Virus record (IMG/VR): IMGVR_UViG_2778261152_000005
Location: 1 to 57,958 of that record
Length of the DNA: 57,958 nt
Reading direction: 5' to 3' (one strand)
Origin: a virus
Taxonomy: Duplodnaviria; Heunggongvirae; Uroviricota; Caudoviricetes
Shown here: positions 2,844-50,755 of the stretch, one piece after another
Position numbering within the stretch: the first letter of the stretch is position 1
Layout: each line of letters starts with the position of its first letter
Program-made: the position numbers and the translations under genes
Notes under the pieces: generated by a model
What the model saw: only the letters and a program-made list of their open reading frames with translations
The model's database searches: none
What the model was told of the DNA's origin: nothing

Positions 2844-2873
2844 TTAATGGTGCCGATAATAGGAGTAAAACAC
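2844..2873 (-). repeat. att copy 1: 19-nt thrW 3'-end fragment (2848-2866) inside a 30-bp direct repeat (ptwF-like)
   Basis: ttaatggtgccgataataggagtaaaacac is identical to 15535-15564. tggtgccgataataggagt is the reverse complement of the tRNA-Thr(CGU) thrW 3' end …ACTCCTATTATCGGCACCA. Confidence 0.85.
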
Positions 2874-3008
2874 TCGATTAATCTCGTGTTAATGCCATCA
2901 CCTACGACCATTACTAATTGATTGAATCTTATAGAAAAATCATCATTTTCTATGCGTCACAATCAATTTTCACATTACAAACGCTCCGACACTTTAGCCG
3001 GAGATTTT

Positions 3009-4286
3009 ATGAGATACAAGCCTAACCAATACTTAATCTGTGATTCTTACGGTAACTACTATTTAAGGATAACGCTGCCTGTGTATATGCAGCCCTTTTT
3101 TGAAGGAAAAAGGACGTTTGTCAGAAGTCTACACACAAGTAATCTTCGTGTTGCACGTAGAAAGCGTGATCAGATTGCAGATGAATACCATTGCTTACGG
3201 GAGAGTGTCGCCCCTGTAAACAGCACAATAGAAAACACGCTGGAACTGTTACGCAGTAAGGCTAAATACGCCAAAACAGCTACCAGAATGCAAGATACAG
3301 CGTCTTCGTGTCCGTCATTGCTTAAAATTCTTGAAATCTACCTGACAATTAACAGCACGAAGAAGAAGCCAGCCACTTTAGCTAAGGCAAGAAAAGCGGT
3401 AGAGATGTTTCTCTCCTACCGTAAAAAGCCTGATATTGCATTGCAAGATGTAAGCCGCACCACTGTTACAGGCTGGATTGAACACATGCAAAAAACCCTT
3501 TCACAACAATCAATTGCAAATTATATCAGCCCAATGGCCCAGCTATGGGAATTAGCTTCATCACGTTACCACGATGCGCCAGAAAGGGCGCTCTCCCCCT
3601 GGCGAGGGCATAGGCTTGATGTGGCACAAAGTAGAGAGAGCTACGAGGCATTTTCTAACAAAGAGCTATTGCAGGTGTTGCAAGTATTTTCCGGTGATTC
3701 AGCAGAAAACAAAGAAATGATGGCTTTGTGTCTTATCGGTGCCTATACAGGTATGCGGATCAATGAGATAGCAAGTCTCACAATAGACGATGTGAAAGAG
3801 ATCGAAGGTGTGCTGTGTTTTGAAATCACACAGGGAAAGACGAAAGCAGCGGCACGTGTTGTGCCTGTACATAGCCTTATCACTCCGTTGGTGTTGTCGC
3901 TGCGTGAAAAGCCTCACAATGGCTTTTTGTTCTATCACGCCAGCATTACAGAGCGTGCTGATGGTAAACGTTCCACGTGGCATACGCAGAGATTTACAAG
4001 AGCTAAACGAAAGGCTTTAGGGGAAAAGGGAACAGAAAGGAAAGTGTTTCATTCTCTGAGACACGGAGTAGCACAGCTTCTTGATCGAAATCAAATTCCA
4101 GAAGACAGGATCGCCCTTCTCCTGGGCCATACACGCGGCAATACAGAAACATTCCGCACATATAGCAAGAATGCAGCTTCTCCAGTAGAGCTTAAAAAAT
4201 ATATTGAGCTTTTACGCTACCCTGAAATAGAGAAAGGCTTATCAATCAATAAAAAATCAAATTTAAGGCGTAAAACAACACTGTAG
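3009..4286 (+). CDS. tyrosine recombinase / phage integrase of element A
   Basis: The C-terminal catalytic signature is present: …GMRINEIASL… (Arg), HSLRHGVAQLL (HxxR), LLGHTRGN (His), FRTY (Tyr). An ATG at 3009 has a GGAG SD 5 nt upstream. The ORF track extends to a TTG at 2922. The gene sits next to att copy 1. Confidence 0.85.
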   Translation: MRYKPNQYLICDSYGNYYLRITLPVYMQPFFEGKRTFVRSLHTSNLRVARRKRDQIADEYHCLRESVAPVNSTIENTLELLRSKAKYAKTATRMQDTASSCPSLLKILEIYLTINSTKKKPATLAKARKAVEMFLSYRKKPDIALQDVSRTTVTGWIEHMQKTLSQQSIANYISPMAQLWELASSRYHDAPERALSPWRGHRLDVAQSRESYEAFSNKELLQVLQVFSGDSAENKEMMALCLIGAYTGMRINEIASLTIDDVKEIEGVLCFEITQGKTKAAARVVPVHSLITPLVLSLREKPHNGFLFYHASITERADGKRSTWHTQRFTRAKRKALGEKGTERKVFHSLRHGVAQLLDRNQIPEDRIALLLGHTRGNTETFRTYSKNAASPVELKKYIELLRYPEIEKGLSINKKSNLRRKTTL

Positions 4287-4293
4287 ACGTAAT

Positions 4294-4326
4294 AAAGAGG
4301 CTTCAATATAGACTGATGCCTCTTTT
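4294..4326. terminator. bidirectional rho-independent terminator between convergent genes
   Basis: The hairpin aaagaggc-N16-gcctcttt is flanked by A/T runs. It lies between the integrase stop (4286) and the stop of the 4367-5044 ORF. Confidence 0.6.
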
Positions 4327-4366
4327 ATGATTATCTCGTTACAGAGCGTTTCATAGGCGTTTAAGG

Positions 4367-5044
4367 CTATTGTTTAAATACTGGCGTTACAACGTCTTGC
4401 CCTGGGCTTTTTTGATTTTTCTGTTCTGTTGTATTTACCTGCATTTTAACCTGTCCCCCTACAGATTTATTTGGTGCTGTTTTTACCGCAATTGCGCTTG
4501 TAGTTGCTTTAGAGACAAGACGGATTTGCTCAAAATCAAGAGTAAACAATAGGCTTTCGCTTGCTTCTTCTGCGTAAGACATGCCAACTAACACAACGTT
4601 GTCATAATTTTTTAACTCAGTGACAAGTAGGAAAGGTTGGCGACTGTCCATCAACTGATTTAGGTATTCAAGCATAAGCATACGTCGATTGCCGTTAATT
4701 CCCGCATTCTTAATCATATCGGGATTGAGCTTCAATACGGTTTCAGAGATACGCCCTTGTAATGTGAACTTGTTATTCCGTATTTGAACATGATCACTAA
4801 CTTCTGATCCTGATTCGACGGCATAGCTTGTAACGTCTGCATTTCGGCTAACTTTCGTCGATTCCACGCTATCAAATGATAATGCCTGGTAGTCATTGTA
4901 AGCAGCATTTGCACCACTGCCGAGGTTAGAGGTAATGATCGCAAAGCCGTTACCCCCTTTAGTTGTTCTACCGTTGCTATCGTTGCTTGTGCTGTTGATT
5001 TTCGCCTCAGTCGGGCGACCAATGGTTAACGGACCCATTGCCAT
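4367..5044 (-). CDS. putative tail/baseplate (Dit-like) virion protein
   Basis: 225-aa ORF immediately downstream of the tape-measure-like gene. The motif …VTSYAVESGSEVSDHVQIRNNKFTLQGRISE… resembles the conserved core of small phage distal-tail/baseplate proteins. This rests on memory of the family only. Confidence 0.4.
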   Translation of the reverse strand: MAMGPLTIGRPTEAKINSTSNDSNGRTTKGGNGFAIITSNLGSGANAAYNDYQALSFDSVESTKVSRNADVTSYAVESGSEVSDHVQIRNNKFTLQGRISETVLKLNPDMIKNAGINGNRRMLMLEYLNQLMDSRQPFLLVTELKNYDNVVLVGMSYAEEASESLLFTLDFEQIRLVSKATTSAIAVKTAPNKSVGGQVKMQVNTTEQKNQKSPGQDVVTPVFKQ

Positions 5045-5091
5045 AATTTGTAATCCTTATTTAAGGGGGCTAAACCGCCCCACAGTGATGA

Positions 5092-6933
5092 TTAATAGGT
5101 TGACCCGCCTGACATAACACCCAGCGTTAATAGCTTGCTAAACTCAGCGGAAGATGCCTTTGATTTGAAGTCGATAAATTCGCTCAATCGTCCGGTGTCT
5201 GATTCGATAGTTAGCGGCACTTCTGCATTTACTTGTAATTCTGGATTGAAGTTAATAACAGGTGCAAAGGTGTGGGAAGGAGTCTTGATAGCTTGTTGTG
5301 CTGCACTCTGTTTCAGATTTGCAATGTTTTGTCCTTCGAGAGTGTATTGATTTACAGCCTGCGCCCCGCCTACCGTCTCTTCTGGCGTAAACCAGCCTTT
5401 AATAGTGTTAACCAGGGAATTGCTGTTATCTGGCTTAGTTGTTCCGGTGCCAGCGCCTTTATATTGGTTAGGAGTGAGATTAGAAAGATTCTGCTTCATT
5501 CCTTCGTTAGACAGTGGCGGTGCATCACCTAAATTCTTTTGAATAGCAGCCGTCTTCTCGTCGTTTTTCATCAGCCAGTTGATTGCTTTCATTACAGCGT
5601 TAACCAATCCGCCGATAGCCTCGCCTAATTTGGTAAACATTGGCAGCATTGCAACCATGCTCTTTTTAAACTCTTCAATCACTTTCGGATCAAGAGATTT
5701 CATAAAGCCATCAACAAAGGCGATCCCTTGTGAGTCAGAAAGCCCACTAAGTGCATTATTCAGTTCACGGAATTTAATAACGCTTTCCTGTTGTGCCTGC
5801 GTTACCCAGCGCCCTGATTCTCGTTGTTCTCGTGCTGATTGTTCCACTTCTTTAGCGGAGCGTGTCCAGTATTTAGAGGTGAGCATCAAATCATCAGCCA
5901 GATCTTCCAGACGACTACCGATTTGTGCATCTGAATAGCCTTTAGCTACCATTCCCTGAACTGCTTTACTAACCAGACCAGCCGGATTATCAGCAAAGTC
6001 TTTTAGATCCTTTTTAGTTAGGAATCCTTCATTCATTAAAGTATTGATGCCGCTATCGCCGCCCTTCCATTCTCCTTTACCAGTTTTCTTATCAACTACA
6101 TATTCAGCCTCATCATAAGATTTAGTAGCCTTCTCCCGTACATCTTTCATCTGATCGAGATACTTACGTTTACCTTGTTCGCCCATCATTGAATCAACGC
6201 CGTTTTTATAAGCCCATTGTTCAATATTGTTCATCTGGTTAACGTCTACACCGCCCAGCTTCGCACGGCTATACAATTCACCCAGCGTTTCAGCATTCGC
6301 AAAGCTGTTAGTAACAAATTCAGAGGCTTTGCTCATAGCCATATACGTAGCGCCAGCGCCTAAGCCACCCAGCATAACAGCCGCAGCACCGCCGCCAATA
6401 CTCCCGCTACCCTTAACAGGTGCATAGGCTTTAGCGTGAGCGTTACGATTGCCATTAATCTTACGTTGTTGCTGTTGTAGGCGTTTCATTTGGCTATTCA
6501 TACGTGCCAGACTAATAGCTCCTCTTTCATATTGGAGGGCAATTTCTCTAGCCTGTGCAATAGCTTTATATTGTTCCGCTACAGAAAGACGGTGCATTGC
6601 ACTAATGCTTGATCCAACGTCTAAAAGCTTTAATTCTGCCTTCTCTTTGCGTGCTGCCAGGGCTTTTTGTTCTCTTGCAACTACACGTTGAGCGGCTAAT
6701 TGTGCTTTAGCATTAGCTTTATCAGCCTGTGCTTGCTTTTTAGCAATATCGTCTACGTCTTTTTTTGCTTTAGCGGTTGATTGTTTATGTGTCTTAACAC
6801 GCAATTCTATATCTTTCACCGCCGCCATTTGTTTACGAAGTTTTTCTACTTCTGCTTTTGCTTTCTCTAATGATGGTCGGTTAACTTCGAAGGTGACAAC
6901 GTTCGAGAGGCGTGCCACGTTTAGCTCTAACAT
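5092..6933 (-). CDS. tape-measure-like protein
   Basis: 613 aa. It has an N-terminal Lys/Ala/Gln-rich coiled-coil region, a Gly-rich hydrophobic segment (GSIGGGAAAVMLGGLGAGATYMAM) and a long helical remainder. This composition is typical of phage tape measure proteins. Confidence 0.45.
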   Translation of the reverse strand: MLELNVARLSNVVTFEVNRPSLEKAKAEVEKLRKQMAAVKDIELRVKTHKQSTAKAKKDVDDIAKKQAQADKANAKAQLAAQRVVAREQKALAARKEKAELKLLDVGSSISAMHRLSVAEQYKAIAQAREIALQYERGAISLARMNSQMKRLQQQQRKINGNRNAHAKAYAPVKGSGSIGGGAAAVMLGGLGAGATYMAMSKASEFVTNSFANAETLGELYSRAKLGGVDVNQMNNIEQWAYKNGVDSMMGEQGKRKYLDQMKDVREKATKSYDEAEYVVDKKTGKGEWKGGDSGINTLMNEGFLTKKDLKDFADNPAGLVSKAVQGMVAKGYSDAQIGSRLEDLADDLMLTSKYWTRSAKEVEQSAREQRESGRWVTQAQQESVIKFRELNNALSGLSDSQGIAFVDGFMKSLDPKVIEEFKKSMVAMLPMFTKLGEAIGGLVNAVMKAINWLMKNDEKTAAIQKNLGDAPPLSNEGMKQNLSNLTPNQYKGAGTGTTKPDNSNSLVNTIKGWFTPEETVGGAQAVNQYTLEGQNIANLKQSAAQQAIKTPSHTFAPVINFNPELQVNAEVPLTIESDTGRLSEFIDFKSKASSAEFSKLLTLGVMSGGSTY

Positions 6934-6967
6934 GCTAATTGTTTCCCTGTATTATGATTGTTGTTTG

Positions 6968-7165
6968 TTATTGTTTTTTAGAGCAATAATATTGGATTGC
7001 TTCGAAAGTGCTACATCCAGTCTGAAAGACACGCTGACGCACATTATTTGCATCAATTGAAAGCATTCTGCATAAGGCACTGACATTGATTATTGAGTCA
7101 TCGCTAATAGCTGCCAGTTCTTTTACAGATTTAAGAATTAATGCCTGTGAATTTTCTGTATTCAT
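6968..7165 (-). CDS. hypothetical small protein
   Basis: 65-aa ORF in the same orientation, between the capsid-like and tape-measure-like genes. Confidence 0.4.
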   Translation of the reverse strand: MNTENSQALILKSVKELAAISDDSIINVSALCRMLSIDANNVRQRVFQTGCSTFEAIQYYCSKKQ

Positions 7166-7318
7166 TGGTTTTCTCTCACATATATATTTTTATTTGGGTT
7201 TGTAGACAGTAGAAAAACAAAAAGGGCAAAGAGATTCGTTACTGTATTTGCGCCTACAGGTTAGTTAATCCCTTTACCATTATTTTCCAGACGATGGGAA
7301 TCGTCTATTAATGCTTTA

Positions 7319-8350
7319 TTACGCAGCAGATCCGAAGATGATAGCTTGCGGAATGTTGTTTACTGGCAGATAAGATGTCTCAGTAACCACAGATGGGAAT
7401 TGGAATTCATCCTTGATTAGATATTGGTGATGCAACACGGCATCTTGACCTAACTCAGCATGACGCACACCAACGCCGCTATGAAGCTGGTAACACTGTG
7501 CCGCTTTATCCATTACCGGGACAATTGCGAAACCGTTCTCTCCGATGTGAGCAACAATCTCAGGAAACATTGACACATCAATAACAGTGATCCCACCAAT
7601 CTGGAAAGAGTCATAGGCTGGGTTAGAATCAACCATACGGGTAAACAGGGCCGTAGCACTCGCATCGCCTGCATATTTCACCATGTCACTGATCAGCGGG
7701 TTAGATGACAAACCATCAGCAGCAGCGCCAGCAGCAAAGATAATTACACCAGTTCGCTTTGCAGCAAGACCAGACCCCAGCTTTTCACTCTGTAAGCGCA
7801 CCGCTTTACGAATAGCAAGGAACGGGTTAACAGTAGTCGATGCAAAGTCGATAGCGGGTACCGTGGTTTTAGCCTGACCGTCGAGGAAGTCGAGATCACC
7901 TTGTCCGGCATATTCAGATTCAACTTTCAGTCCCAGCAGCGCGGTAATCAGATCCACTTCAACACGGTTTGCGTGTGAACGGTAATGAGCCTCAGAGAAA
8001 TCATTAACCGCTACCAGCATAGCATCAGAACGGTTTGGATATTGGCGGCTGTATTGTTCCAGGTCACGAGAAGTAACAGCGTTAATACTGCCGACGTGTT
8101 TCATCTGGAAAAGTTTGTTTGACCATTCCTGACGTTTAGAAGCGTTCCAGTTGCTTTGAGTGTAAGGCGAGGTTTCCCCGGCTACCTGCACAAACTGCTC
8201 AATCAGGTCGGTAAGAAGAATGCTGTTTTCTGTATGATATTGCACATCGAACAGATCGAGATTAGTAATCAGGGTATTAAGTGCATTCTCATAAGCAAAT
8301 GGAGTTACTACCGCAGTATTAACGCCAAAATATGTTGATAAATCATTCAT
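7319..8350 (-). CDS. putative major capsid protein (lambda gpE-size class)
   Basis: 343 aa, directly preceded by a ~127-aa gene. This matches the decoration-then-capsid order and sizes of lambda D/E. There is no other long ORF on either strand here. The assignment rests on size, order and general composition only. Confidence 0.45.
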   Translation of the reverse strand: MNDLSTYFGVNTAVVTPFAYENALNTLITNLDLFDVQYHTENSILLTDLIEQFVQVAGETSPYTQSNWNASKRQEWSNKLFQMKHVGSINAVTSRDLEQYSRQYPNRSDAMLVAVNDFSEAHYRSHANRVEVDLITALLGLKVESEYAGQGDLDFLDGQAKTTVPAIDFASTTVNPFLAIRKAVRLQSEKLGSGLAAKRTGVIIFAAGAAADGLSSNPLISDMVKYAGDASATALFTRMVDSNPAYDSFQIGGITVIDVSMFPEIVAHIGENGFAIVPVMDKAAQCYQLHSGVGVRHAELGQDAVLHHQYLIKDEFQFPSVVTETSYLPVNNIPQAIIFGSAA

Positions 8351-8364
8351 TATTATTTTCCTTG

Positions 8365-8748
8365 TTAAGTCGTAGGGATCGCAAGTTCTTCATAACCAGC
8401 AATTACAAAGCCGAGAGATTGCAGTTTTGCAATAACACTTGCCTTTTCCATGCTGTTAAATTCAATCCCATCTTCAGCCAGAATAACGAAAGTAGGATGT
8501 GCAACCACTACGCTTTCCTGTCCTTCATAAGCCGGTTCAACTACTACGTGAGCAATATCAGAAGCGGTTGTTGCTTTGGTGCCATCGGCTTTCAGCAAAG
8601 CCCCGACAATAAGATCGTCAGTGAGAGGTGAAGCCAGTTTGACGAGGCGATCTTGCAGCACTGGATCAGCAGCGTAAGCTACTACCTTACAGCGTGAACG
8701 GGAGTTATCCGCATTCACTGCTTTTAATTTTCCATATGGGTTAGCCAT
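8365..8748 (-). CDS. putative head decoration protein (gpD-like)
   Basis: 127-aa ORF ending 14 nt before the capsid-like gene. Size and position match head-decoration genes. The assignment is weak. Confidence 0.35.
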   Translation of the reverse strand: MANPYGKLKAVNADNSRSRCKVVAYAADPVLQDRLVKLASPLTDDLIVGALLKADGTKATTASDIAHVVVEPAYEGQESVVVAHPTFVILAEDGIEFNSMEKASVIAKLQSLGFVIAGYEELAIPTT

Positions 8749-8752
8749 AAGA

Positions 8753-8950
8753 TTATTTTCCTTTCAGTTGTTTAATTTTAGATTTAAGGGCATCAGCAAG
8801 ACTAACCGCATCAGCCGATTTAAATAATTGAGCAGTGGTAGAACGAAGACTTTCGGGAGTAACTCACAACAGTGCGGCAACCTTAATGAGGTTTTCATCA
8901 CTAACAATCATCGTTTCCCCGTCTTTGCTGATAATCATTTCTTGTTTCAT
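8753..8950 (-). pseudogene. 66-codon reading frame interrupted by one in-frame TGA (codon 29; tca at 8864-8866 on the + strand)
   Basis: MKQEMIISKDGETMIVSDENLIKVAALL*VTPESLRSTTAQLFKSADAVSLADALKSKIKQLKGK. The frame is unchanged across the TGA. It ends at a TAA 4 nt before the ATG of the decoration-like gene. Confidence 0.35.
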
Positions 8951-9945
8951 AAATAACGTTCCTGTTAGTGCCAGACAAATAAAAAGCCCCAATGCCGTAA
9001 GAGGTTAATTCTGACCAGCAAAGGGGCTTTAACGTGCGGGCAATTACATAATTGATAAGTTAAACTATAAGAGGATTAAACATATCAGCAAATACACTTT
9101 TTAAATATACTTGATGATATGCTTAAAGAGTGAATATCAGACCTTAGAAAGGAAGGCTCTTAGGAGTTTGCCACTGGAATCACTAAGATCTGATATTCTG
9201 GGTGCGGGGGGCTAACCGCTGCCTGTTTTTGCTGTGGATGCAACAAAGTAAGGCTGTAAGGAATCACTATTCCAATTCTCATCTACTCACAGATCAAATT
9301 TTAATAGGATTAACTACACCAACAGTAATCTACCGTTTCAGAAAATCGTTTTTACAACCAAAGCTTATAGATCCGCATTCTATAAAACCCGTTTTGCTAT
9401 CAATATTTCCAAAGGTTATTGCACAATTCTTAGCTAAACTCTCTCTGCTTGCGGCTAACGCTATGCAGATGATTGTTTTTGACAACAACTTAATAGATTA
9501 TTCTGTTACTAACTTCTGTCATTAAATAAGAGTTTAATGATGTTAGTAAATAGTTATAAAATATAACTATCAGTGTAAGGCTCTTTAATGTTTTCGGACA
9601 AAATAAGGAGCTTTAGGATAAGCATAGATGAAAAATAAGAGCGGGAAGGGCAAGGAGATAACACCTACCCACCTTTATCAAAATTAAGCACAATGCCTAA
9701 CAACATTCATCAACACAACGTAGAAACAATCAACAATCAAAGAGGGAGTTATGATTATTCTAAAACTTCTTGAGAGATGGAAGGTAATATTTGTTAGAGG
9801 TTAATGCCACTCAACCCTTGAGGCTATCACCTTCCATATGCAGGGATTTATGACAATAGAAGGATTAACGCCAACTAAAATCTTTTTATCTATCCCTAAA
9901 ATTATTATATAACAAAATCATTATAAATGCAAATGATTTTCATTA

Positions 9946-10257
9946 TCATTTAGAGAAAATAGCACTTTTTGCTAAATCATCTACTAATTGCTGAATCTCT
10001 TCACTTGTAGCCTTTAACGTGCGGGCGGTGTCTGTGATAGTTCGAGTGCACAGCTTGGCATCGTCCTCAGATAGCTGCTCTAAATCGCTCACCAGAGAGA
10101 TAAAATCGTCAAGGCTTACATTCACCTTCATTAAGCTAATTACGCATTGAGAGAGCGTGTAATCGCATAAATCTGAATAGGCTTGATTGATACGTGTCTG
10201 TAGGGTGATCATCCGATCCGAAAGAGTGTCCATAACTTCCAGAATGTTGTCTGTCAT
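9946..10257 (-). CDS. hypothetical helical protein
   Basis: 103-aa ORF. Its start overlaps the stop of the upstream ORF (10254-10257), which implies translational coupling. Confidence 0.5.
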   Translation of the reverse strand: MTDNILEVMDTLSDRMITLQTRINQAYSDLCDYTLSQCVISLMKVNVSLDDFISLVSDLEQLSEDDAKLCTRTITDTARTLKATSEEIQQLVDDLAKSAIFSK

Positions 10258-10484
10258 TGTGCAATCTCTCCTTGATCTGCTGATTCCATCTCTTGCTGAA
10301 TCTGTTTATCCTTGTTTAGTGCAATCTGTAGTGGTATACGATAGGTTGCAATGTCATCCAGCACATCATCAAGCAAGGCAAAATCATTTTCTTCTTTTGC
10401 TCGTTCAGCCAGTGAAATAAACACTTCTGCAAGTTGTTTTGCTTCTTTAAAAAATGTTGTTTCTAATAGTTGATAGTTAATCAT
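10254..10484 (-). CDS. hypothetical acidic helical protein
   Basis: 76-aa ORF coupled to 9946-10257. Confidence 0.5.
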   Translation of the reverse strand: MINYQLLETTFFKEAKQLAEVFISLAERAKEENDFALLDDVLDDIATYRIPLQIALNKDKQIQQEMESADQGEIAQ

Positions 10485-10542
10485 TATTTTTCCTTTTTCG
10501 AATATTTTTCATTGGGCGCTTATACATACGCCCGTCATTTTA

Positions 10543-10926
10543 TTAGTTAGAACGTTTGTTAGAAGCTAATGTATCTTCTAAATGAGCCATCAGATCGACT
10601 TCCGAAACACCACCTACACAATTATTGAAAGCGTTAAATCCCAAAAAATGATGATAGGAGCTAAACCCTAAAAGCTGCCAACGTTTCAGAGTGCCATCAG
10701 AAATGATAGTTTGTTTTCTTGTTTTTGGGCGAAAGTAAACGCCTGGCATTGATTTGATTATTTCTTGTTCTTCATAGCTTAATTCAGGGGATTCTGTTTC
10801 AAGAATAAATATTATCTCTTCCCCTGGAATTTCGTTATTGGTGTGTGTCGGTGGACGTTGTCTTGTTGAATTGAAGTTACTGTTTTTTTCAATACGTTTT
10901 AAGTTGTTCTTTTTCTTTCTTCCCAT
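10543..10926 (-). CDS. hypothetical protein with basic N-terminus
   Basis: 127-aa ORF (MGRKKKNNLKRIEK…) in the same orientation as the Rep-like operon. Confidence 0.45.
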   Translation of the reverse strand: MGRKKKNNLKRIEKNSNFNSTRQRPPTHTNNEIPGEEIIFILETESPELSYEEQEIIKSMPGVYFRPKTRKQTIISDGTLKRWQLLGFSSYHHFLGFNAFNNCVGGVSEVDLMAHLEDTLASNKRSN

Positions 10927-11061
10927 TTTCCCTCTTTTTATGTGGATTATAAAAACTTGATGCCATTGTTACAATGAATATCGCCATAAATGCATTTGCC
11001 ATATGTATTGCCCGATCTGTTGTTATTGATTGTTTGTGATGTTATAAATCATTTATTCTCC

Positions 11062-11631
11062 TTAGAATGGTATTGAATCGTATATTTCACTTTTTTCTCT
11101 TAGAGATATTATCAGATCGTGAAAAGCCTGTTTCTCAAGATAGATATTCTTTGAATCTAATGCTCGTTTTACAAAATCTTCTGTTTCTTCGTGCGGTGGT
11201 TTCTTCTTATCAAGGGAAAGAAGCCAAGTAAAAATTTCGGGCCGTTCAGGGAACTCAGGCTCTTGTGTTTCTTCTTCAACGATGATTTCGGAAACATTCA
11301 ATATTTCATTAGATTCGTCTTCTTTCTCAGAAGGATCAGGTAGTGATGATTCTCCTTTTGGAATATCAAGCACTCGATAAAGGTTAGAGCTTCCTGGTCG
11401 TGCATCTTTTATAATTAATCCCATTTCGAGCAATTTCTTAACCCTTTCTTCTGCTGCTCTTGGTGTTATGCCAAAAACATCGCCTATCTTAGCGTAAGAG
11501 GGAAATGCACGATCAAACCCTCTCAAATAGCAGTAAAGGTTTTTAGCACTATCTGTAAATTTATGCCCGTTTACTTGGCTTATTTTTAGAATCCACATAG
11601 GAACTTTTACAAATTGTTCTTCATTAATCAT
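11062..11631 (-). CDS. winged-helix DNA-binding protein, putative replication initiator of element A
   Basis: MINEEQFVKVPMWILK…AKNLYCYLRGFDRAFPSYAKIGDVFGITPRAAEERVKKLLEMGLII is a wHTH of the phage/plasmid Rep/O N-terminal type. It lies downstream of a sigma70 promoter and close to five 22-23-bp iterons. The start is taken at the Met at 11631; the track ORF extends to 11655. Confidence 0.5.
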   Translation of the reverse strand: MINEEQFVKVPMWILKISQVNGHKFTDSAKNLYCYLRGFDRAFPSYAKIGDVFGITPRAAEERVKKLLEMGLIIKDARPGSSNLYRVLDIPKGESSLPDPSEKEDESNEILNVSEIIVEEETQEPEFPERPEIFTWLLSLDKKKPPHEETEDFVKRALDSKNIYLEKQAFHDLIISLREKSEIYDSIPF

Positions 11632-11684
11632 TAAAAATCTCCTTGATGTAATCACGCTCTACGGCGCTACTATGGTGATAAAAA

Positions 11685-11855
11685 TCACTTGCTTTTGTTT
11701 GAGAGTGTTTCAGCCTCTCTTTTCAACATATCAAGAATGTAATCTGTAACAGTGATACGTTTACTTCTGGCTTCTTTAAACAACACCTGAAATACTTCAT
11801 CAGGAATATGAAAGCAAGTGCGTGGTTGTCTTTTCTTTTCTGTAGTTTCGCTCAT
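11685..11855 (-). CDS. ribbon-helix-helix (CopG/Arc-like) protein
   Basis: 56-aa ORF not in the track: MSETTEKKRQPRTCFHIPDEVFQVLFKEARSKRITVTDYILDMLKREAETLSNKSK. It shows the basic strand-helix-helix pattern and has a ggagaaggag SD upstream. Confidence 0.55.
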   Translation of the reverse strand: MSETTEKKRQPRTCFHIPDEVFQVLFKEARSKRITVTDYILDMLKREAETLSNKSK

Positions 11856-11876
11856 AGTTTTCTCCTTCTCCTGTTA

Positions 11877-12053
11877 TTATTCTTTCTCTGCCTTACGCAG
11901 TTCATCAATAATTTTTAGTGCATCGTCAAAGCATTTTTCACGCTCTGGATAACCACAGCGTCGCGCTGTGTTCCTGTTCATCCTTACTTTAAAACGATTA
12001 ATCTCACCACGTTTCCAGGCTTCAACTACATCTTGAGAAGTGAAATACTTCAC
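11877..12053 (-). CDS. hypothetical small protein, first gene of the Rep operon
   Basis: 58-aa ORF with a GTG start and an aggagg SD 7 nt upstream (VKYFTSQDVVEAWKRGEINRFKVRMNRNTARRCGYPEREKCFDDALKIIDELRKAEKE). It is too short to appear in the track. Confidence 0.45.
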   Translation of the reverse strand: MKYFTSQDVVEAWKRGEINRFKVRMNRNTARRCGYPEREKCFDDALKIIDELRKAEKE

Positions 12054-12169
12054 TAATTAACCTCCTATTCTATTTGGTTAAAAGAAAAAACACCTTGCAA
12101 GCCTGACGGCTTCAAAGTGCATTGATTTTAATTATTTAGAGGATGGGAATGTTTTCCTGTCCTAATATT

Positions 12170-12198
12170 ACTTTACCACGACTAAAGGCTTTTGTCAA
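12170..12198 (-). promoter_or_regulatory. sigma70-type promoter of the Rep operon
   Basis: The minus strand reads TTGACA-17 nt-TAAAGT. The -35 is flanked by the inverted repeat cgacta…tagtcg, a possible operator. Confidence 0.5.
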
Positions 12199-12491
12199 CC
12201 CGTAGTCGTAAAAATATTGATCTTTTTCAGTAAGTTATGATATTGCTTAACAATTCGTGCTCTTTTTCTTCCTTATTGTCTAAAACGCTCTAAAACGCCC
12301 TCTGACGAGGTTTTGATAAATACAATAATTCCCTTATGTAGAGGCTGTTTAGCTCGCCAGAGGCTTGATTTAAGCGGTAGAATCTCATCTACTACCTAAC
12401 ATCTTTAAACCATATTTTTCTTTTTTGTCTGTTTGATGGTTGATCTATAGTTATGCGTTAGCATCCCCAAAGGGGTAACGCTACTCTAATT

Positions 12492-12865
12492 GCATTCGCC
12501 AGAACATTGCACAAGAAATTTATTTTAGATGATTGATGATCGTTAGATTGGCGTAAGCCTCATCAATGGAACTATTGAAGCGCACAGCGCATAGACACTA
12601 ACAACCATTCGCTTACGCTCAGGTTATTGCACAAGTAAATTTCAATCGTTAGATGGTAGTTAGTTAATTATCGTTCTGCGCACAGCGCAAGACTATTTAG
12701 CCTTACGCAAGCCGTAGGCTATTTGCACATAGTAGATTACATATTCGTTGTGAGCGGCATTAGCGAACATAGATCTACTAACTAACATCAACAAACAAAA
12801 ACTATGTGTTATGACAAGCAGTCTAACGACTAACACTCTAACTTGTGCAAGGTTCTGGCGAATGC
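12492..12865. repeat. pair of 24-bp inverted repeats (23/24 match) bracketing a 326-bp internally repetitive segment
   Basis: gcattcgccagaacattgcacaag (12492-12515) matches the reverse complement of cttgtgcaaggttctggcgaatgc (12842-12865). Inside are further ttgcaca(a/t)ag copies at 12627 and 12723. The hairpin motif gcgcacagcgca recurs at 12580 and 12678, about 98 bp apart. Confidence 0.75.
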
Positions 12866-12982
12866 CAATAGATTAAGGGATAGTCAAGGACTCCCCTAAC
12901 GGGTATCCCTATAATTATTCTTTAAAGATAAAAGAATTTATAAAAGATAATTTAATTGTAGTTTTATAGTTGATCTAATAGG

Positions 12983-13119
12983 TAACAAAATTCTGTAGGG
13001 GTGGCTAACAGTTTTCTGTGGGGGTGTCTAACATAATTCTGTTAGGGTTGGGGTAACAGTTTTCTGTTAGGGTGCATATTTCTTTAAAAGTTAAGGATAA
13101 CAGAATTCTGTGGGGGTAG
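12983..13119 (+). repeat. five direct iterons, putative replication origin of element A
   Basis: taacaaaattctgtaggggt, taacagttttctgtgggggt, taacataattctgttagggt, taacagttttctgttagggt and taacagaattctgtgggggt start at 12983, 13006, 13029, 13054 and 13098. The first four are spaced 23-25 bp apart, with a 44-bp gap before the last. Confidence 0.7.
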
Positions 13120-13523
13120 TTCACAGTGACCTACCGTTATTACCGATGTGTAATATCGTTACATCCATTTATCACATAACATCTGTGCAATGATCTTCTT
13201 ATAAGTTGTAAAAGTGTTTCTTGCTATCAAAAATTAAACATCTAAAACAGGCTTAAATTCAAGATTAATTGATGATTAATCCCTGTGTAATTCCATACTA
13301 AAAAATTTAATGAAAAGTAGCTTAAAAGAGCAATGTTAGCTTTCTTCACTTTTACATCACTTTCGCAAAGCCTTGTGTAATGCGGCTTACAGAGCACTAT
13401 CAGAAATTGTTGATTAAAAATCAATCTATTATCTGTCGAACAAGTTTTCTTTAATGCAACAAAAAATTAATTTTTTCAAAATAAACACGCTATTTAATAG
13501 CTTGCTAATTTTACCAAAACATA

Positions 13524-13650
13524 ACTACACGATTCTCATGCAAGACGTGTAGTGATAAAGCAGGCTAAATCACCACACTAAAAACCTTCGAATTTCGTAG
13601 TGAAAAAAGTCCTTTACACACCTAATCAACACGATCAATAATCACTACAC
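13524..13650. promoter_or_regulatory. res-like recombinase binding sites upstream of the serine recombinase gene
   Basis: The imperfect inverted pairs actacacg-N14-cgtgtagt (13524-13553) and tcaccacac-N17-cgtagtga (13570-13603), plus an extra half-site tcactacac (13642-13650), share the 9-mer TCAC(C/T)ACAC. They sit where Tn3/gamma-delta-type res sites lie relative to tnpR. Confidence 0.4.
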
Positions 13651-13671
13651 ACAAATCAACACAGAAGGAAA

Positions 13672-14229
13672 ATGAAAATGGCTAATATTGGATACATTAG
13701 GGTATCGACTGTCCAACAAAACACAGACCGTCAATTAGCTGGAGTAACTCTTGATAAAGTCTTTGAAGATAAAGCGTCAGGCAAGAATACCCAGCGCCCA
13801 CAGTTTGAGGCAATGATGAACTATGTGCGTGAAGGTGATGTTTTGCATGTTCACAGCATTGATCGACTTTGCCGTAATACAGCCGACCTACTGGCAACGG
13901 TTGAGCAATTAACAGAGCGCGGCGTGTCTGTGCATTTCCATAAAGAAGACTTTAAGACAGGGAAGAACTCTCCCGCAGGGAATATGATGCTCACAGTGCT
14001 TGCAGCAGTGGCACAAATGGAACGTGAAATGATGCTTGAGCGGCAACGTGAAGGGATCGCCGCAGCTAAGGCCGCTGGACGTATAGCAAAACGTGGTAAT
14101 GGAAAAGCAATTGATCGAGCGGGAATTGTTGCCGCTCTCGCGAATGGTGGATCAATTCGGAGCGTAGCAAAAGATTTCAGTGTCAGCACACAGACGGTGC
14201 AACGTATCAAGAAAGAGCAGGAAGCGTAA
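13672..14229 (+). CDS. small serine recombinase (resolvase/invertase family)
   Basis: 185 aa. The N-terminal catalytic motif IGYIRVSTVQQNTDRQ (Ser nucleophile) and a C-terminal HTH (SIRSVAKDFSVSTQTVQRIKK) are present. A ggaa SD lies upstream. Confidence 0.9.
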   Translation: MKMANIGYIRVSTVQQNTDRQLAGVTLDKVFEDKASGKNTQRPQFEAMMNYVREGDVLHVHSIDRLCRNTADLLATVEQLTERGVSVHFHKEDFKTGKNSPAGNMMLTVLAAVAQMEREMMLERQREGIAAAKAAGRIAKRGNGKAIDRAGIVAALANGGSIRSVAKDFSVSTQTVQRIKKEQEA

Positions 14230-14445
14230 TGCCTCCTGATATTTGAGAATTGTCGCTGCGTGGACCTGACGCCGCTGATCTTCGCGTTAAACATTGATCA
14301 CGTCTGCGCCGATTTCAGATAAAAAGGTAGCTATTAAGCAATACGTAACTTTTACAATTAGTGAAATTATCTAAAACACAAGTTATATAGATGAGAAAAT
14401 GAAACATTATCTTGAACAAATCAAACAAAACAACACATCATCTTG

Positions 14446-14474
14446 TTGACACCATGCAAAGTGAATAGTAAACT
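14446..14474 (+). promoter_or_regulatory. sigma70-type promoter
   Basis: TTGACA (14446-14451), a 17-nt spacer, then TAAACT (14469-14474). It lies about 80 nt upstream of the 52-aa membrane ORF. Confidence 0.5.
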
Positions 14475-14554
14475 ATTATATGTGAAAATTTGCATGTTGC
14501 GTGCAATAAAAAATAAATGATACTTTGCTATTGTTAAATCAATAGGGGGTATCT

Positions 14555-14713
14555 ATGCGCTTTATCTCATCCATTTTAAAAACCTGCAGAACCACAATTA
14601 CTTTAGCTGTAATTGTTACCATCATATACCTCATCTATTTTACCCCTCGAGATAAAATCGATTCACTAGCGATCATCGTTCATGCAATGGCTACATTAAC
14701 TAAAAAACTTTAA
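14555..14713 (+). CDS. small hydrophobic membrane peptide (52 aa)
   Basis: MRFISSILKTCRTTITLAVIVTIIYLIYFTPRDKIDSLAIIVHAMATLTKKL. It has a gggggt SD-like sequence upstream, one clear TM helix, its own promoter, and a terminator directly downstream. It is not in the track because it is under 60 aa. Confidence 0.45.
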   Translation: MRFISSILKTCRTTITLAVIVTIIYLIYFTPRDKIDSLAIIVHAMATLTKKL

Positions 14714-14726
14714 TAATTTCACTATC

Positions 14727-14770
14727 AGGCGCATAAACACATCTTTGATCGCTGGATGTGTTATGCGCCT
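14727..14770. terminator. bidirectional stem-loop terminator
   Basis: aggcgcataaacacatc-N11-gatgtgttatgcgcct forms a near-perfect 16-bp stem. It lies between two convergent small ORFs. Confidence 0.65.
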
Positions 14771-14779
14771 ACTGGTGAT

Positions 14780-14932
14780 TCAATCCTTAAGCCATTTCAA
14801 CTCACTAAGGAGTTTTCTTTCTTCGTTCTCTCGCTGTTTACGCTCTAGCCAGGCTTTTCCCTCTGGAGTAGACAGGAACTTACGAGCGTGAATCTTGCGG
14901 TTATTACGTTTGATAGCTGCAATGTTTTTCAT
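14780..14932 (-). CDS. small basic protein (50 aa)
   Basis: MKNIAAIKRNNRKIHARKFLSTPEGKAWLERKQRENEERKLLSELKWLKD. It is convergent with the membrane peptide. It is not in the track because it is under 60 aa. Confidence 0.35.
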   Translation of the reverse strand: MKNIAAIKRNNRKIHARKFLSTPEGKAWLERKQRENEERKLLSELKWLKD

Positions 14933-15534
14933 CGTGTTGCCTCTGTATTCATATGAAAATGAACAAGTTACATACTACACAGGGAGACTACGCATAAAAC
15001 ACAATACAAGTAAAGATACATTTTCAAGACAATAGGAGCCATAAAGCGCCTTTGATGGTTATACCAAAAAATAAGCGCCGTAGGCGTATCCACTAAAAGG
15101 GCTTTTTCACAAAAGCTATGAAGTCTTAGCAGTTCTTCTCTTATCAGGCACCCGTTGTACTCCGGTGGACGAAACCGTGCTAGAGCTTGATTCTTTCCCG
15201 ATCAAGTTAGGTTTTGAAGAGGTGGGCTTTAATCCACTATTGCACTTAAAACTCTTCCCATCATTTAGCCTGTTTATCCTCTGCAACGTCATCTCGACGT
15301 GTAGCATCATTGGACACCGCGCCAGGTGTGGAACATCTTGCTAAGAGTTTTGGTAGAAGGTTTAGAGACGGTGGCACGTCTTCCAGCTTCAAAGGAACTT
15401 GTTACGAGGTTGAGCCTGGGAACTACTCGCCCATACGTGTTACACTACCAAAGCCCATAACAACGTATAGGCGTTTGTAATTGATAACAGAAGATACAAT
15501 TTCTTAGAGAAGTTAAGCTAAGTTATTGATTTTC

Positions 15535-15564
15535 TTAATGGTGCCGATAATAGGAGTAAAACAC
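15535..15564 (-). repeat. att copy 2: the same 30-bp repeat with the 19-nt thrW 3' fragment; junction of element A and prophage B
   Basis: Identical to 2844-2873. The similarity continues leftward, with a 2-nt indel, as ttgatttt(ct)taatgg. Confidence 0.85.
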
Positions 15565-50601: not shown

Positions 50602-50709
50602 AATTTGGATTGCAACGGCAAAAGGTGGATTATGGCGGACAAACAAAACGCCTAATATGGCGAATTTAAAGGAAAAATGGAGGACTAAGGATGTTAGCGG
50701 ATTAAAAAA

Positions 50710-50755
50710 TGGTGCCGATAATAGGAGTCGAACCTACGACCTTCGCATTACGAAT
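50710..50755 (-). pseudogene. thrW: thrW tRNA-Thr(CGU) 3' fragment, 46 nt from the anticodon loop to CCA (att copy 3)
   Basis: tggtgccgataataggagtcgaacctacgaccttcgcattacgaat is the reverse complement of thrW from …ATTCGTAATG… to …GGCACCA. The match ends in the anticodon stem, and the D-arm and 5' acceptor are absent. Confidence 0.85.

Follow-up and report, generated by a model that had tools for sequence, protein, structure and literature searches.

A repeat block beside the iteron origin of an Escherichia coli thrW island as a possible origin-accessory array

Introduction

Replication origins of the lambda type combine an O protein with iterons that carry internal dyads, an AT-rich region and a flanking palindrome. 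The satellite phage P4 uses two cis regions, ori and crr, and crr carries the same initiator-binding repeats as ori. In plasmid pSC101, the par locus is built from three related segments, two direct and one inverted. This locus is 375 bp long, non-coding and cis-acting, and it is located approximately 200 bp from the origin; it is reported to bind gyrase, to make the origin more negatively supercoiled and to help replication (PMC5043065, PMC4041236).

Here, we analyse a block of repeats found in a stretch of 57,958 nt (the window), which is E. coli chromosome. Like par, the block is a non-coding segment of a few hundred bp located beside an origin with an AT-rich stretch and iterons, and both contain inverted repeats. 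The original prediction offered three readings of the block: an invertible DNA switch, an array bound by a small DNA-binding protein, such as a centromere, or a structured non-coding RNA locus. Our preferred reading, to which we give a probability of roughly 0.45, is that the block forms the left part of a region of double-stranded DNA, built of repeats and putatively bound by protein, that adjoins the origin of a mobile island, i.e. an accessory array with a layout similar to pSC101 par.

Results

The island and its distribution

The island is 12.7 kb long, spans positions 2847-15557 and is integrated at a tRNA-Thr gene (thrW), see Table 1. It is a small, uncharacterised mobile element, satellite-like and integrative. 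No description of it was found in the literature searched, and RefSeq annotates nothing in the spacer. The known thrW prophages Sp1 and Sp2 of O157 Sakai were considered and are unrelated to this island. The repeat block sits in a 1.6-kb gene-free hub of the island.

A match to the spacer is present in 746 of 5,426 complete E. coli genomes, approximately one in seven, and the block itself in about 350 E. coli genomes. The median genome carries the block in one place and the highest number is three; all the copies inspected lie inside copies of the thrW island. In plasmid DNA, two E. coli records match, one of which is an island fragment between IS3 copies on an IncF plasmid. The second match in the plasmid set is a record of 4.9 Mb. 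No similar DNA was found near the 66-81% identical recombinases of Rahnella, Enterobacter, Buttiauxella and Citrobacter.

Scans for the island's Rep protein in metagenome and viral contigs, and in 5.8 billion proteins, returned only Escherichia/Shigella, or sequences from metagenomes with a spacer like that of the E. coli island, and all the loci recovered have near-identical blocks. Due to the relatives being all Escherichia/Shigella and very similar, the comparative power is low, and the near-identity of the blocks precludes covariation analysis proper. One locus with Rep and no block (L118) was treated as rearranged and uninformative, as an ORF of approximately 395 aa abuts its operon.

The gene content of the island bears on the possibility that the block is a recognition site for a helper phage, i.e. 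a packaging or induction signal read by a helper terminase or regulator. The island encodes capsid-, tape-measure- and Dit-like proteins, the island ORFs that were scanned gave no match to portal or terminase families, and in this window the island stands in tandem with a T7-like prophage. The identity of the block across islands that differ in Rep and iterons, described below, also fits such a site. However, none of 50,697 phage records has DNA similar to the block, and among the island's proteins none was identified as a terminase small subunit. We consider a helper-phage site quite unlikely.

Table 1. Positions of the features in the island, in window coordinates.
Feature	Position	Strand	Remarks
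att repeat, left	2847..2866	+	20 nt; 3' end of tRNA-Thr; delimits the 12.7-kb island
att repeat, right	15538-15557		20 nt; delimits the 12.7-kb island
Rep initiator	11062..11631	-	189 aa; variable N-terminal winged-helix part, conserved C-terminal part
Promoter-like site (TTGACA-17-TAAAGT with TG)	12170..12198	-	Faces the leftward operon; -35 hexamer invariant across alleles
TCGCCAGA-N3-TTG, third copy	12354..12367	+	Same motif as in the outer part of each arm; one or two copies in relatives
Small hairpin/palindrome	12455..12481		Left of the left arm; outer stem GCGTTA/TAACGC, alternative allele GTGCTA/TAGCAC
Left arm of 34-nt inverted repeat	12482..12515	+	Holds TCGCCAGAAC then ATTGCACAAG; start of unit A
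Repeat unit A	12506..12625	+	Local alignment with B scores 49; shuffles 20 +/- 4, 0/500 reach
Repeat unit B	12626..12721	+	At least part kept in every variant
Repeat unit C	12722..12850	- (inverted)	Kept in every variant
Right arm of inverted repeat	12842..12875	-	Start of inverted unit C
TGTGYAAK partners	12506, 12626; degenerate copy 12722	-	
TGTGYAAK sites	12844, 13147, 13184, 13284, 13374	+	Within 12844..13381
Palindrome at edge of origin cassette (GGGATA...TATCCC)	12877..12909		
AT-rich stretch	12910..12982		Presumed DNA-unwinding element; conserved beside all four iteron types
Five iterons (TAACAGAATTCTGTGGGGGT)	12983..13127	+	23-30 nt each; internal dyad ACAGAATTCTGT in each
Dyad ATAACTACACG-N14-CGTGTAGTGAT	13521..13556		Upstream of the recombinase gene; candidate recombinase site
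Small serine recombinase	13672..14229	+	Pfam Resolvase, 1e-38

The origin cassette

Rep is similar to the PHROG replication initiation and O-like families (1e-8 to 2e-4) and to Pfam HTH_36 with E = 7e-4, which is below the curated cut-off. Its N-terminal part exists in four types, and these pair with four iteron types at 37 out of 37 loci; the C-terminus is constant. The five iterons noticed in the original prediction are thereby identified as replication-origin iterons, since Rep N-terminal type and iteron type co-vary perfectly, and by this measure they form a genuine initiator-binding origin. Their start-to-start spacing is 23, 23, 25 and 44 bp.

The palindrome at the edge of the cassette has a perfect 14-bp stem in one locus (L122). 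In most variants its left half is decayed, and in L007 and L150 a deletion has removed the palindrome entirely. In L124 and L126 it is duplicated with each iteron cassette, and the palindrome, the AT-rich stretch and the iterons are duplicated jointly as tandem cassettes in L124, L126 and L152. Judged by these loci, the origin is evidently a cassette whose palindrome, AT-rich stretch and iterons move as one.

The block adjoins this cassette at a distance of 0-120 bp. It is unchanged across the Rep and iteron types, and islands that differ in both have identical blocks.

Structure of the block

All the sequence features listed in the original prediction are present at the positions it gave. The inverted repeat is real: the inner 24 nt match at 23 of 24 positions, and the full arms are 34 nt long, 88% complementary and separated by 326 nt. 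The TTGCACA sites are found at 12507, 12627 and 12723 (+) and at 12844-12850 (-), the mini-palindrome GCGCACAGCGCA at 12580-12591 and 12678-12689, 98 bp apart, and the GTTAGTTAG/CTAACTAAC motifs form arms at 12652-12664 and 12777-12789. An exact second copy of the 14-mer AGGTTATTGCACAA is located at 9413-9426 (+), within another gap of approximately 1 kb that has no genes; three relatives (L002, L100 and L121) also have this distal copy. The block is non-coding, as predicted; its sole ORF is broken by indels in relatives and no ORF is conserved. The 9-mer GTTGATCTA does occur on both sides of the block, but the repetition is probably due to chance: we estimate that a few exact 9-mer repeats are expected within 1.6 kb, and the left copy is lost in the alternative allele.

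According to the alignments, the block is made of three diverged copies of a 100-120-bp unit, A direct, B direct and C inverted, and the apparent 34-nt inverted repeat consists of no more than the heads of A and C. Unit B aligned with the reverse complement of C scores 40, compared with 22 +/- 4 for shuffled sequences, none of which (0/500) reach this value; for A and B see Table 1. The units keep linear motifs, i.e. TTGCACAAG, TCGCCAGA-N3-TTG and CTAAC/GTTAG, and have no common fold. The 12-mer GCGCACAGCGCA is also found in the sister lineage L152.

The two arms are not equally conserved. The right arm is essentially invariant among the aligned relatives, and its outer end, from approximately 12864, is part of the origin cassette, a boundary taken from the tandem cassettes of L124 and L126. 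The left arm is polymorphic: it matches the right arm at approximately 73% in an alternative allele that is common, and 6 of 31 variants lack it. Each arm has two direct TTGCA(C/T) copies 21 bp apart and no internal dyad. A MITE or an insertion-sequence remnant was also considered and rejected, as outside the arms the only matches are of 4 nt and due to chance, and the copies inspected are confined to the island.

The block could also be largely functionless, an old inverted and tandem duplication in slow decay, with selection acting only on its right-hand part beside the AT-rich region. Decay would agree with left partners that vary or are lost beside a right arm and a right palindrome half that do not change, and also with natural deletions of 98, 106 or 113 bp between repeats, which take out unit A or a hybrid of A and B. 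Some natural variants lack unit A, and the same is true of the left arm and of the palindrome; these parts may therefore be dispensable or decaying. In most comparisons the block is approximately 99-100% conserved and the neighbouring genes 94-97%. That the block is no less conserved than these genes speaks for our preferred reading, but the excess over the backbone is only modest, and the high conservation could reflect recent spread of a shared backbone and not selection. However, although the three units resemble one another at only about 60-65%, each of them hardly varies across most of the islands that were compared. All three share the exact TTGCACAAG core, and the oriented pattern of sites described below recurs in a lineage with a different motif. 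We regard decay without function as a minor possibility.

Orientation of the segment and the serine recombinase

In the first of the original readings, the neighbouring serine recombinase would flip the segment 12516-12841 between the arms. The Hin, Gin, Cin and Pin segments and fimS likewise have inverted repeats around a short segment near a gene for a site-specific recombinase. Here, the arms, matched at 23 of 24 positions, bracket 326 bp in the window, and the gene for a small serine recombinase, which matches a PHROG "DNA invertase" family at 2e-62, is 800 bp away.

However, the genomes do not support a switch. Of the two junctions, 333 E. coli records carry the native one, and none of 351 carries the synthetic inverted one. 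Neither the metagenome loci (0 of 34) nor the IMG/VR loci (0 of 12) are inverted, the former all having the same orientation relative to Rep, and in six cross-checked records the strands of segment and flank agree. As a positive control, the same junction method detects fimS in both orientations, in 4451 versus 245 genomes (4,696 in total). In contrast to fimS, the orientation of the block is fixed in all the genomes examined.

The sequence of the arms gives the same answer. They are not kept as a pair, given the divergence and loss of the left arm, and they carry direct TTGCA repeats and not the dyad expected of a crossover site. The recombinase is no closer to invertases than to resolvases (Tn3 and gamma-delta resolvases approximately 1e-27, a DNA invertase chain approximately 1e-25), and it has a dyad of its own upstream (Table 1). 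Recombinases that are 78-81% identical but are not accompanied by such a block have related dyads (GTTGTAA/TTACAAC) upstream, and in sister islands that lack a recombinase gene the architecture is still kept. An invertible switch is thus extremely improbable. If our reading is right, inverted repeats beside a serine recombinase are insufficient to call a phase-variable switch.

Single-strand structure

The third of the original readings, a structured RNA, is here taken together with single-stranded DNA elements, e.g. a replication-control RNA or a priming signal. Folded as a single strand, the region 12440-12920 is more stable than shuffled sequences, with z = -8.6 (+) and -7.8 (-). The outer stem of the small hairpin at 12455-12481 is kept between alleles by two compensatory pairs, and a T-rich tail follows the palindrome at 12877-12909.

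Against this, the whole window has no Rfam hit at the gathering threshold, and at E <= 5 the region 11900-13750 has two chance snoRNA hits, both outside the block. Scoring gave no sigma-70-like promoter and no terminator within the block, and for promoters inspection by hand gave only 3/6 + 3/6 matches. The nearest promoter candidate on the + strand, at 12354-12383, has lost the last T of the -10 in relatives. The partner in the long-range stem is polymorphic or absent, the mini-palindrome is degenerate in unit C without compensation, and the left half of the 12877-12909 palindrome has decayed in the majority of variants. When A, B and the reverse complement of C are folded together, the consensus energy is -3.5 kcal/mol, the covariation term is unfavourable and no shared structure is found. 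An argument for a + strand RNA from G-U wobbles was dropped, as the duplexes of the alternative left arm with the right arm have similar energies on both strands. The structured-RNA reading is accordingly disfavoured, and we consider it, in either form, very unlikely.

An oriented array of sites on both sides of the origin

TTGCACA as such is not enriched in the window (12 copies found, 11.8 expected), but 5 of these 12 are located within 12507-13190. The related motif TGTGYAAK is clustered: 7 of its 12 copies in the window lie within 12506-13381 (876 bp), where approximately 0.13 is expected from the window-wide rate. The motif TTGCACAAG of the repeat units is a member of this seven-site set. 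The sites left of approximately 12780 belong to the - strand; those between 12844 and 13381, which lie on either side of the iterons, belong to the + strand, see Table 1. The copy at 13147 sits inside the remnant of another iteron type.

The orientation is found beyond the window. Nine spacer variants from two lineages have the sites on the - strand left of the iterons and on the + strand right of them, with two exceptions, in addition to the 12844 site, which was outside the scoring of the scan. In the sister lineage the same position holds a different left motif, AATTACACGA, in three copies 51-52 bp apart.

For the binder of such sites, we considered the small, universal first-operon protein of 58-62 aa and rejected it, as its variants do not track the change of motif from TTGCACAAG to TTACACGA. 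No DnaA box was found, and the single IHF/Fis consensus (13412-13431) is outside the block.

The second of the original readings, an array bound by a small DNA-binding protein, comes closest to our own in its general form, with binding that is putative in both. For its centromere version, the island lacks a partition NTPase. As a centromere or incompatibility array, the repeats would be a partition site bound by a small protein of the island. A short array of direct and inverted repeats beside an origin has the expected form, and small ribbon-helix-helix-like and basic proteins are encoded nearby. However, no island ORF has a hit to the ParA, ParM or TubZ families, and several islands that keep the block have no 56-aa RHH-like gene in their annotation. 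As the island lacks a partition ATPase, partition would have to rely on the segregation machinery of a helper or of the host. The island SGI1, which is described as hijacking the parABS system of its helper plasmid (PMC10954446), gives a precedent for this. On the other hand, an element that is normally integrated has no need for partition. A centromere is in our view unlikely.

Discussion

We favour an accessory array at the origin. The sites that flank the AT-rich and iteron core would be bound by a host factor or by a protein that all island subtypes share, and the bound complex would tune the opening or firing of the origin. Perhaps it would also tune the divergent early promoter. Its action would be akin to that of the non-coding pSC101 par, which aids a neighbouring iteron origin.

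A more far-reaching reading, which we hold to be of low probability, is that the islands are an undescribed family of E. coli phage satellites or integrative replicons, with a gene-free hub of 1.6-3 kb in which swappable and stackable Rep-iteron cassettes are flanked by an oriented array of the TGTGYAAT type. A protein of the island, of a helper phage or of the host would read this array, taking the element from silent integration to replication or packaging and back. On this view the block would form one arm of a site of a new type, for origin control or hijacking, and not a par-like accessory.

If the preferred reading of the block as an accessory array is right, the islands provide a candidate origin-accessory element. 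They would also show cleanly, in nature, how initiator specificity is exchanged in modules, with the N-terminal domain of Rep and the iterons swapped in pairs. The finding opens no long-standing question; as for the origin part, it adds a new member to a familiar kind.

The island origin resembles that of lambda in its O-like Rep, in dyad-bearing iterons at a spacing of approximately 23 bp, in the AT-rich stretch followed by a palindrome and in having no DnaA box. It differs from lambda in being located outside the rep gene, 1.3 kb away, and in a Rep of approximately 190-226 aa. Furthermore, the island encodes no P-like helicase loader, and its iteron cassettes are swapped and stacked in tandem.

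The block is similar to P4 crr in being a second repeat-containing cis region beside the origin of a small integrative satellite. However, it contains no iteron-like sequence even when 4 mismatches are allowed, and it stays constant while Rep and the iterons change; therefore it is not a crr bound by Rep.

The block is similar in layout to pSC101 par, where the two direct segments and the inverted one are arranged in the same way as units A, B and C. The two loci have no sequence similarity. The block also differs from par in its 100-120-bp units with an oriented 8-10-mer that continues beyond the iterons, and in its host, which is an integrated island and not a plasmid.

Genomic setting of the island

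The window comes from the E. coli chromosome and has paoC and paoD at its left end. Copies of the tRNA-Thr 3' end lie at 2847-2866 and 15538-15557 (20 nt) and, in a longer 47-nt form, at 50709-50755, so three elements lie in tandem at thrW: a 12.7-kb island (2847-15557), a 35-kb prophage and a further element. The third element begins past 50755, and the window contains no complete tRNA gene. The T7-type genes of the prophage (15558-50755), which lies between two tRNA-Thr 3'-end copies and in tandem with the small island, include those for a tail fibre N-terminal domain, a T7-type terminase, a nozzle, a portal/head-to-tail connector, a family-A DNA polymerase, a VapE-like domain protein and an SLT-domain internal protein.

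The island gene set (4367-8748) points to either a phage satellite or a reduced prophage, which we could not assign to any kind; no island ORF scanned matched the portal or terminase families. Literature searches found no description of this island family. The gene-free spacer, in which RefSeq annotates nothing, is matched in 746 of 5,426 complete E. coli genomes, and the non-coding repeat block inside it is present in about 350 E. coli genomes. Every copy is from Escherichia or Shigella, and the copies hardly differ from one another; the conservation of the block could reflect recent spread, and covariation tests have little power among such copies.

The island has another gene-free gap, about 1 kb long (8951-9945), which contains the distal copy of AGGTTATTGCACAA. 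The exact 15-mer CTTTAACGTGCGGGC occurs at 9027 and 10012, 985 bp apart, the second copy inside a 103-aa gene; the gap may stem from an old insertion or from duplication of a gene end. A 65-aa gene annotated in relatives (8753-8950, minus strand) has an in-frame stop in the window and is therefore probably a pseudogene in this strain. On the conjugative IncF plasmid pEND_Eco 19019-1 (NZ_CP126938.1) an island fragment with Rep type 2, block and recombinase is flanked by two IS3-family copies and adjoins sopAB.

Features of the island and its spacer (window coordinates).
Feature	Position	Strand	Remarks
Tyrosine integrase		+	Island
Leftward gene set		-	Island; includes Dit-like, tape-measure-like and capsid-like proteins
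Several small unknown proteins			Island
Dit-like protein	4367-5044		Island
Tape-measure-like protein	5092-6933		Island
Capsid-like protein	7319-8350		Island; sister-lineage (L152) homologue is 'major capsid protein' in RefSeq
Rep		-	189 aa, island; weak HTH_36 match, PHROG replication-initiator/O-like matches
Gene-free spacer	12054-13671		1.6 kb, followed by recombinase
Best conserved promoter-like site	12198 to 12170	-	Faces leftward operon
Unit A	12506-12625		Direct
Unit B	12626-12721		Direct
Unit C	12722-12850		Inverted
TGTGYAAK	12506, 12626, 12722	-	12722 degenerate
TGTGYAAK	12844, 13147, 13184, 13284, 13374	+	
Dyad ATAACTACACG-N14-CGTGTAGTGAT	13521-13556		Just upstream of recombinase gene
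Small serine recombinase	13672-14229		After spacer

The block is built of three units

Reading 12200-13400 together with repeat detection recovered every item of the original prediction: the inverted repeat bracketing 326 nt (34-nt arms 12482-12515/12842-12875, 88% complementary, inner 24 nt 23/24), the TTGCACA sites (plus strand 12507, 12627, 12723; minus strand 12844), the mini-palindrome GCGCACAGCGCA at 12580 and 12678, the GTTAGTTAG/CTAACTAAC arms, five iterons at 12983-13127 and the 14-mer AGGTTATTGCACAA, with its exact second copy at 9413-9426. The 9-mer GTTGATCTA, thought to flank the block, is the one item that is probably there by chance; the alternative allele common in relatives does not keep it.

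The local alignment of A with B scores 49 (shuffles 20 +/- 4), and that of B with the reverse complement of C scores 40 (shuffles 22 +/- 4), neither value being reached by any of 500 shuffles. The three units are therefore paralogous, and the 34-nt "inverted repeat" consists of the heads of A and C. In some natural variants, deletions of 98, 106 or 113 bp between repeats have removed one direct unit; every variant keeps unit C and some or all of a direct unit. The units have linear motifs in common, foremost TTGCACAAG, exact in A, B and C; a third copy of the outer motif, TCGCCAGA-N3-TTG, lies at 12354. We regard it as unlikely that the block is a decaying duplication. At 12361/12362, relatives have about 140-190 extra bases, bounded by two copies of GTTTAGCTCGCC...GGCTTGATTTAAG; in the window the two are fused into one, apparently by deletion between the direct repeats.

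The block was also proposed to be a structured RNA locus. Single-strand folding is far better than for shuffles (z = -8.6 and -7.8), and the stem of the hairpin 12455-12481 is kept between alleles by two compensatory pairs. Several results speak against such an RNA or a single-stranded DNA element. The long-range stem has a polymorphic or missing partner, and duplex energies favour neither strand. A, B and reverse-complemented C have no shared structure (consensus energy -3.5 kcal/mol, covariation term unfavourable), and the mini-hairpin of unit C is broken without compensation. The palindrome 12877-12909 forms a perfect 14-bp stem in one related locus (L122); most variants have an intact right half only, and two (L007, L150) have the palindrome deleted. 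With no Rfam match and no promoter-like or terminator-like site scored inside the block, we give the structure signals little weight and find this explanation quite improbable.

Orientation of the block

The suggestion that the block is an invertible switch served by the serine recombinase finds no support. We searched with a 300-nt inverted-junction query, in which the left flank and left arm are followed by the reverse-complemented right interior. None of 351 E. coli records covered at least 80% of the query; the best matches were the native right junction read backwards. The native right junction was covered in 333 E. coli records, interior and flank strands agreed in the six records cross-checked, and orientation relative to Rep was identical in 34 of 34 metagenome loci. 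For the fimS positive control, with the same query design, the K-12 orientation was found in 4,451 genomes and the opposite in 245, a rate at which about 17 of the 333 copies would be inverted. The orientation of the block is fixed.

Nor are the arms conserved as a pair: about half of the islands carry a left arm, GCACTCGTCAGAGTATTGCACAAT, that matches the right arm at about 73%, and in 6 of 31 distinct variants left arm and unit A are wholly absent. The recombinase, equally similar to Tn3/gamma-delta resolvases and to a DNA invertase chain, has a dyad of its own, and 78-81% identical recombinases in other genera have analogous dyads without such a block. In the sister lineage (L152, L153) the general architecture is retained although there is no recombinase gene at all. 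An inversion switch is hardly credible.

Several ACTACAC/GTGTAGT-type dyads, one being ACTACACG...CGTGTAGT and a further one, seen by eye, TCACCACAC...TCGTAGTGA, lie at 13521-13603, directly upstream of the recombinase gene. They are arranged much like a resolvase res site overlapping the promoter-like site of the gene (13613-13642).

A modular Rep-iteron origin

The iterons belong to a real replication origin. Relatives have four Rep N-terminal types on one conserved C-terminal part, each type with its own repeat beside the same AT-rich stretch. Type 1 goes with ACAnnnTTCTGT (16/16 loci), type 2 with TAAYnnATCGTTAC (5/5), type 3 with GGAAnnCATTTCC (14/14, plus one truncated Rep) and type 4 with a CAGTGACCTACC-type repeat (2/2); the loci do not represent independent lineages, but the four-way match is exact. 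At least two cassettes stand in tandem in three loci (L124, L126, L152), each starting at GCCAATAGATTAAGGG and holding iterons of a single type along with the palindrome and the AT-rich stretch. These limits place the origin cassette of the window at about 12864-13127 and make the block of three paralogous units adjoining it on the left a separate module, independent of Rep type.

The origin resembles one of the lambda type: its iterons contain dyads and are spaced about 23 bp apart, it has both an AT-rich stretch and a palindrome, and no DnaA box was found. The origin is a new example of a familiar kind.

Downstream of the five iterons (13119-13165), single remnants TTCACAGTGACCTACC (type 4) and TACCGATGTGTAATATCGTTACA (type 2) look like traces of earlier cassette exchange. 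The sister lineage at thrW has a 2.9-kb gene-free region (L152 3490-6450; L153 3491-6505) with three iteron types in tandem and single matches to the fourth.

An oriented site array beside the origin

The motif TTGCACAAG is one form of TGTGYAAK, which has 12 copies in the 58-kb window, 11 of them inside the island; seven lie within 12506-13381, against about 0.13 expected. The copy at 13147 lies inside a remnant of another iteron type and so should perhaps be discounted. Across nine spacer variants of two lineages, the minus strand carries the sites left of the iterons and the plus strand those to their right, with two exceptions, in a scan that left out the plus-strand site at 12844, likewise left of the iterons. 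An 8-10-mer is clustered and oriented on either side of the origin. In the sister lineage the left sites are three copies of AATTACACGA at intervals of 51-52 bp, and the mini-palindrome GCGCACAGCGCA again lies close by. The only IHF (AATCAATCTATTA) and Fis consensus match in the spacer lies at 13412-13431, between iterons and recombinase gene.

We favour, at a probability of roughly 45%, the reading of the block as an accessory array of candidate protein-binding sites. A protein common to all subtypes, or a host factor, would bind the sites on double-stranded DNA, and the resulting complex might modulate origin opening or firing, perhaps also the divergent early promoter. A universal 58-62-aa protein was considered as binder and rejected, as it fails to track the motif change. 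No partition ATPase, primase or helicase was found in the island, and it is rather unlikely that the block is a centromere for a hijacked partition system. Recognition of the block by a helper phage is improbable.

As an accessory array, the block has its closest functional precedent in pSC101 par, a non-coding locus of 375 bp that lies some 200 bp from an iteron origin, binds gyrase and increases the negative superhelicity of that origin (PMC5043065, PMC4041236), although the block has no sequence similarity to par. A role like that of P4 crr is excluded, because the block contains no iteron-like sequence and stays constant when Rep changes. Together with its oriented site array, the block represents a new form of origin-accessory repeats.
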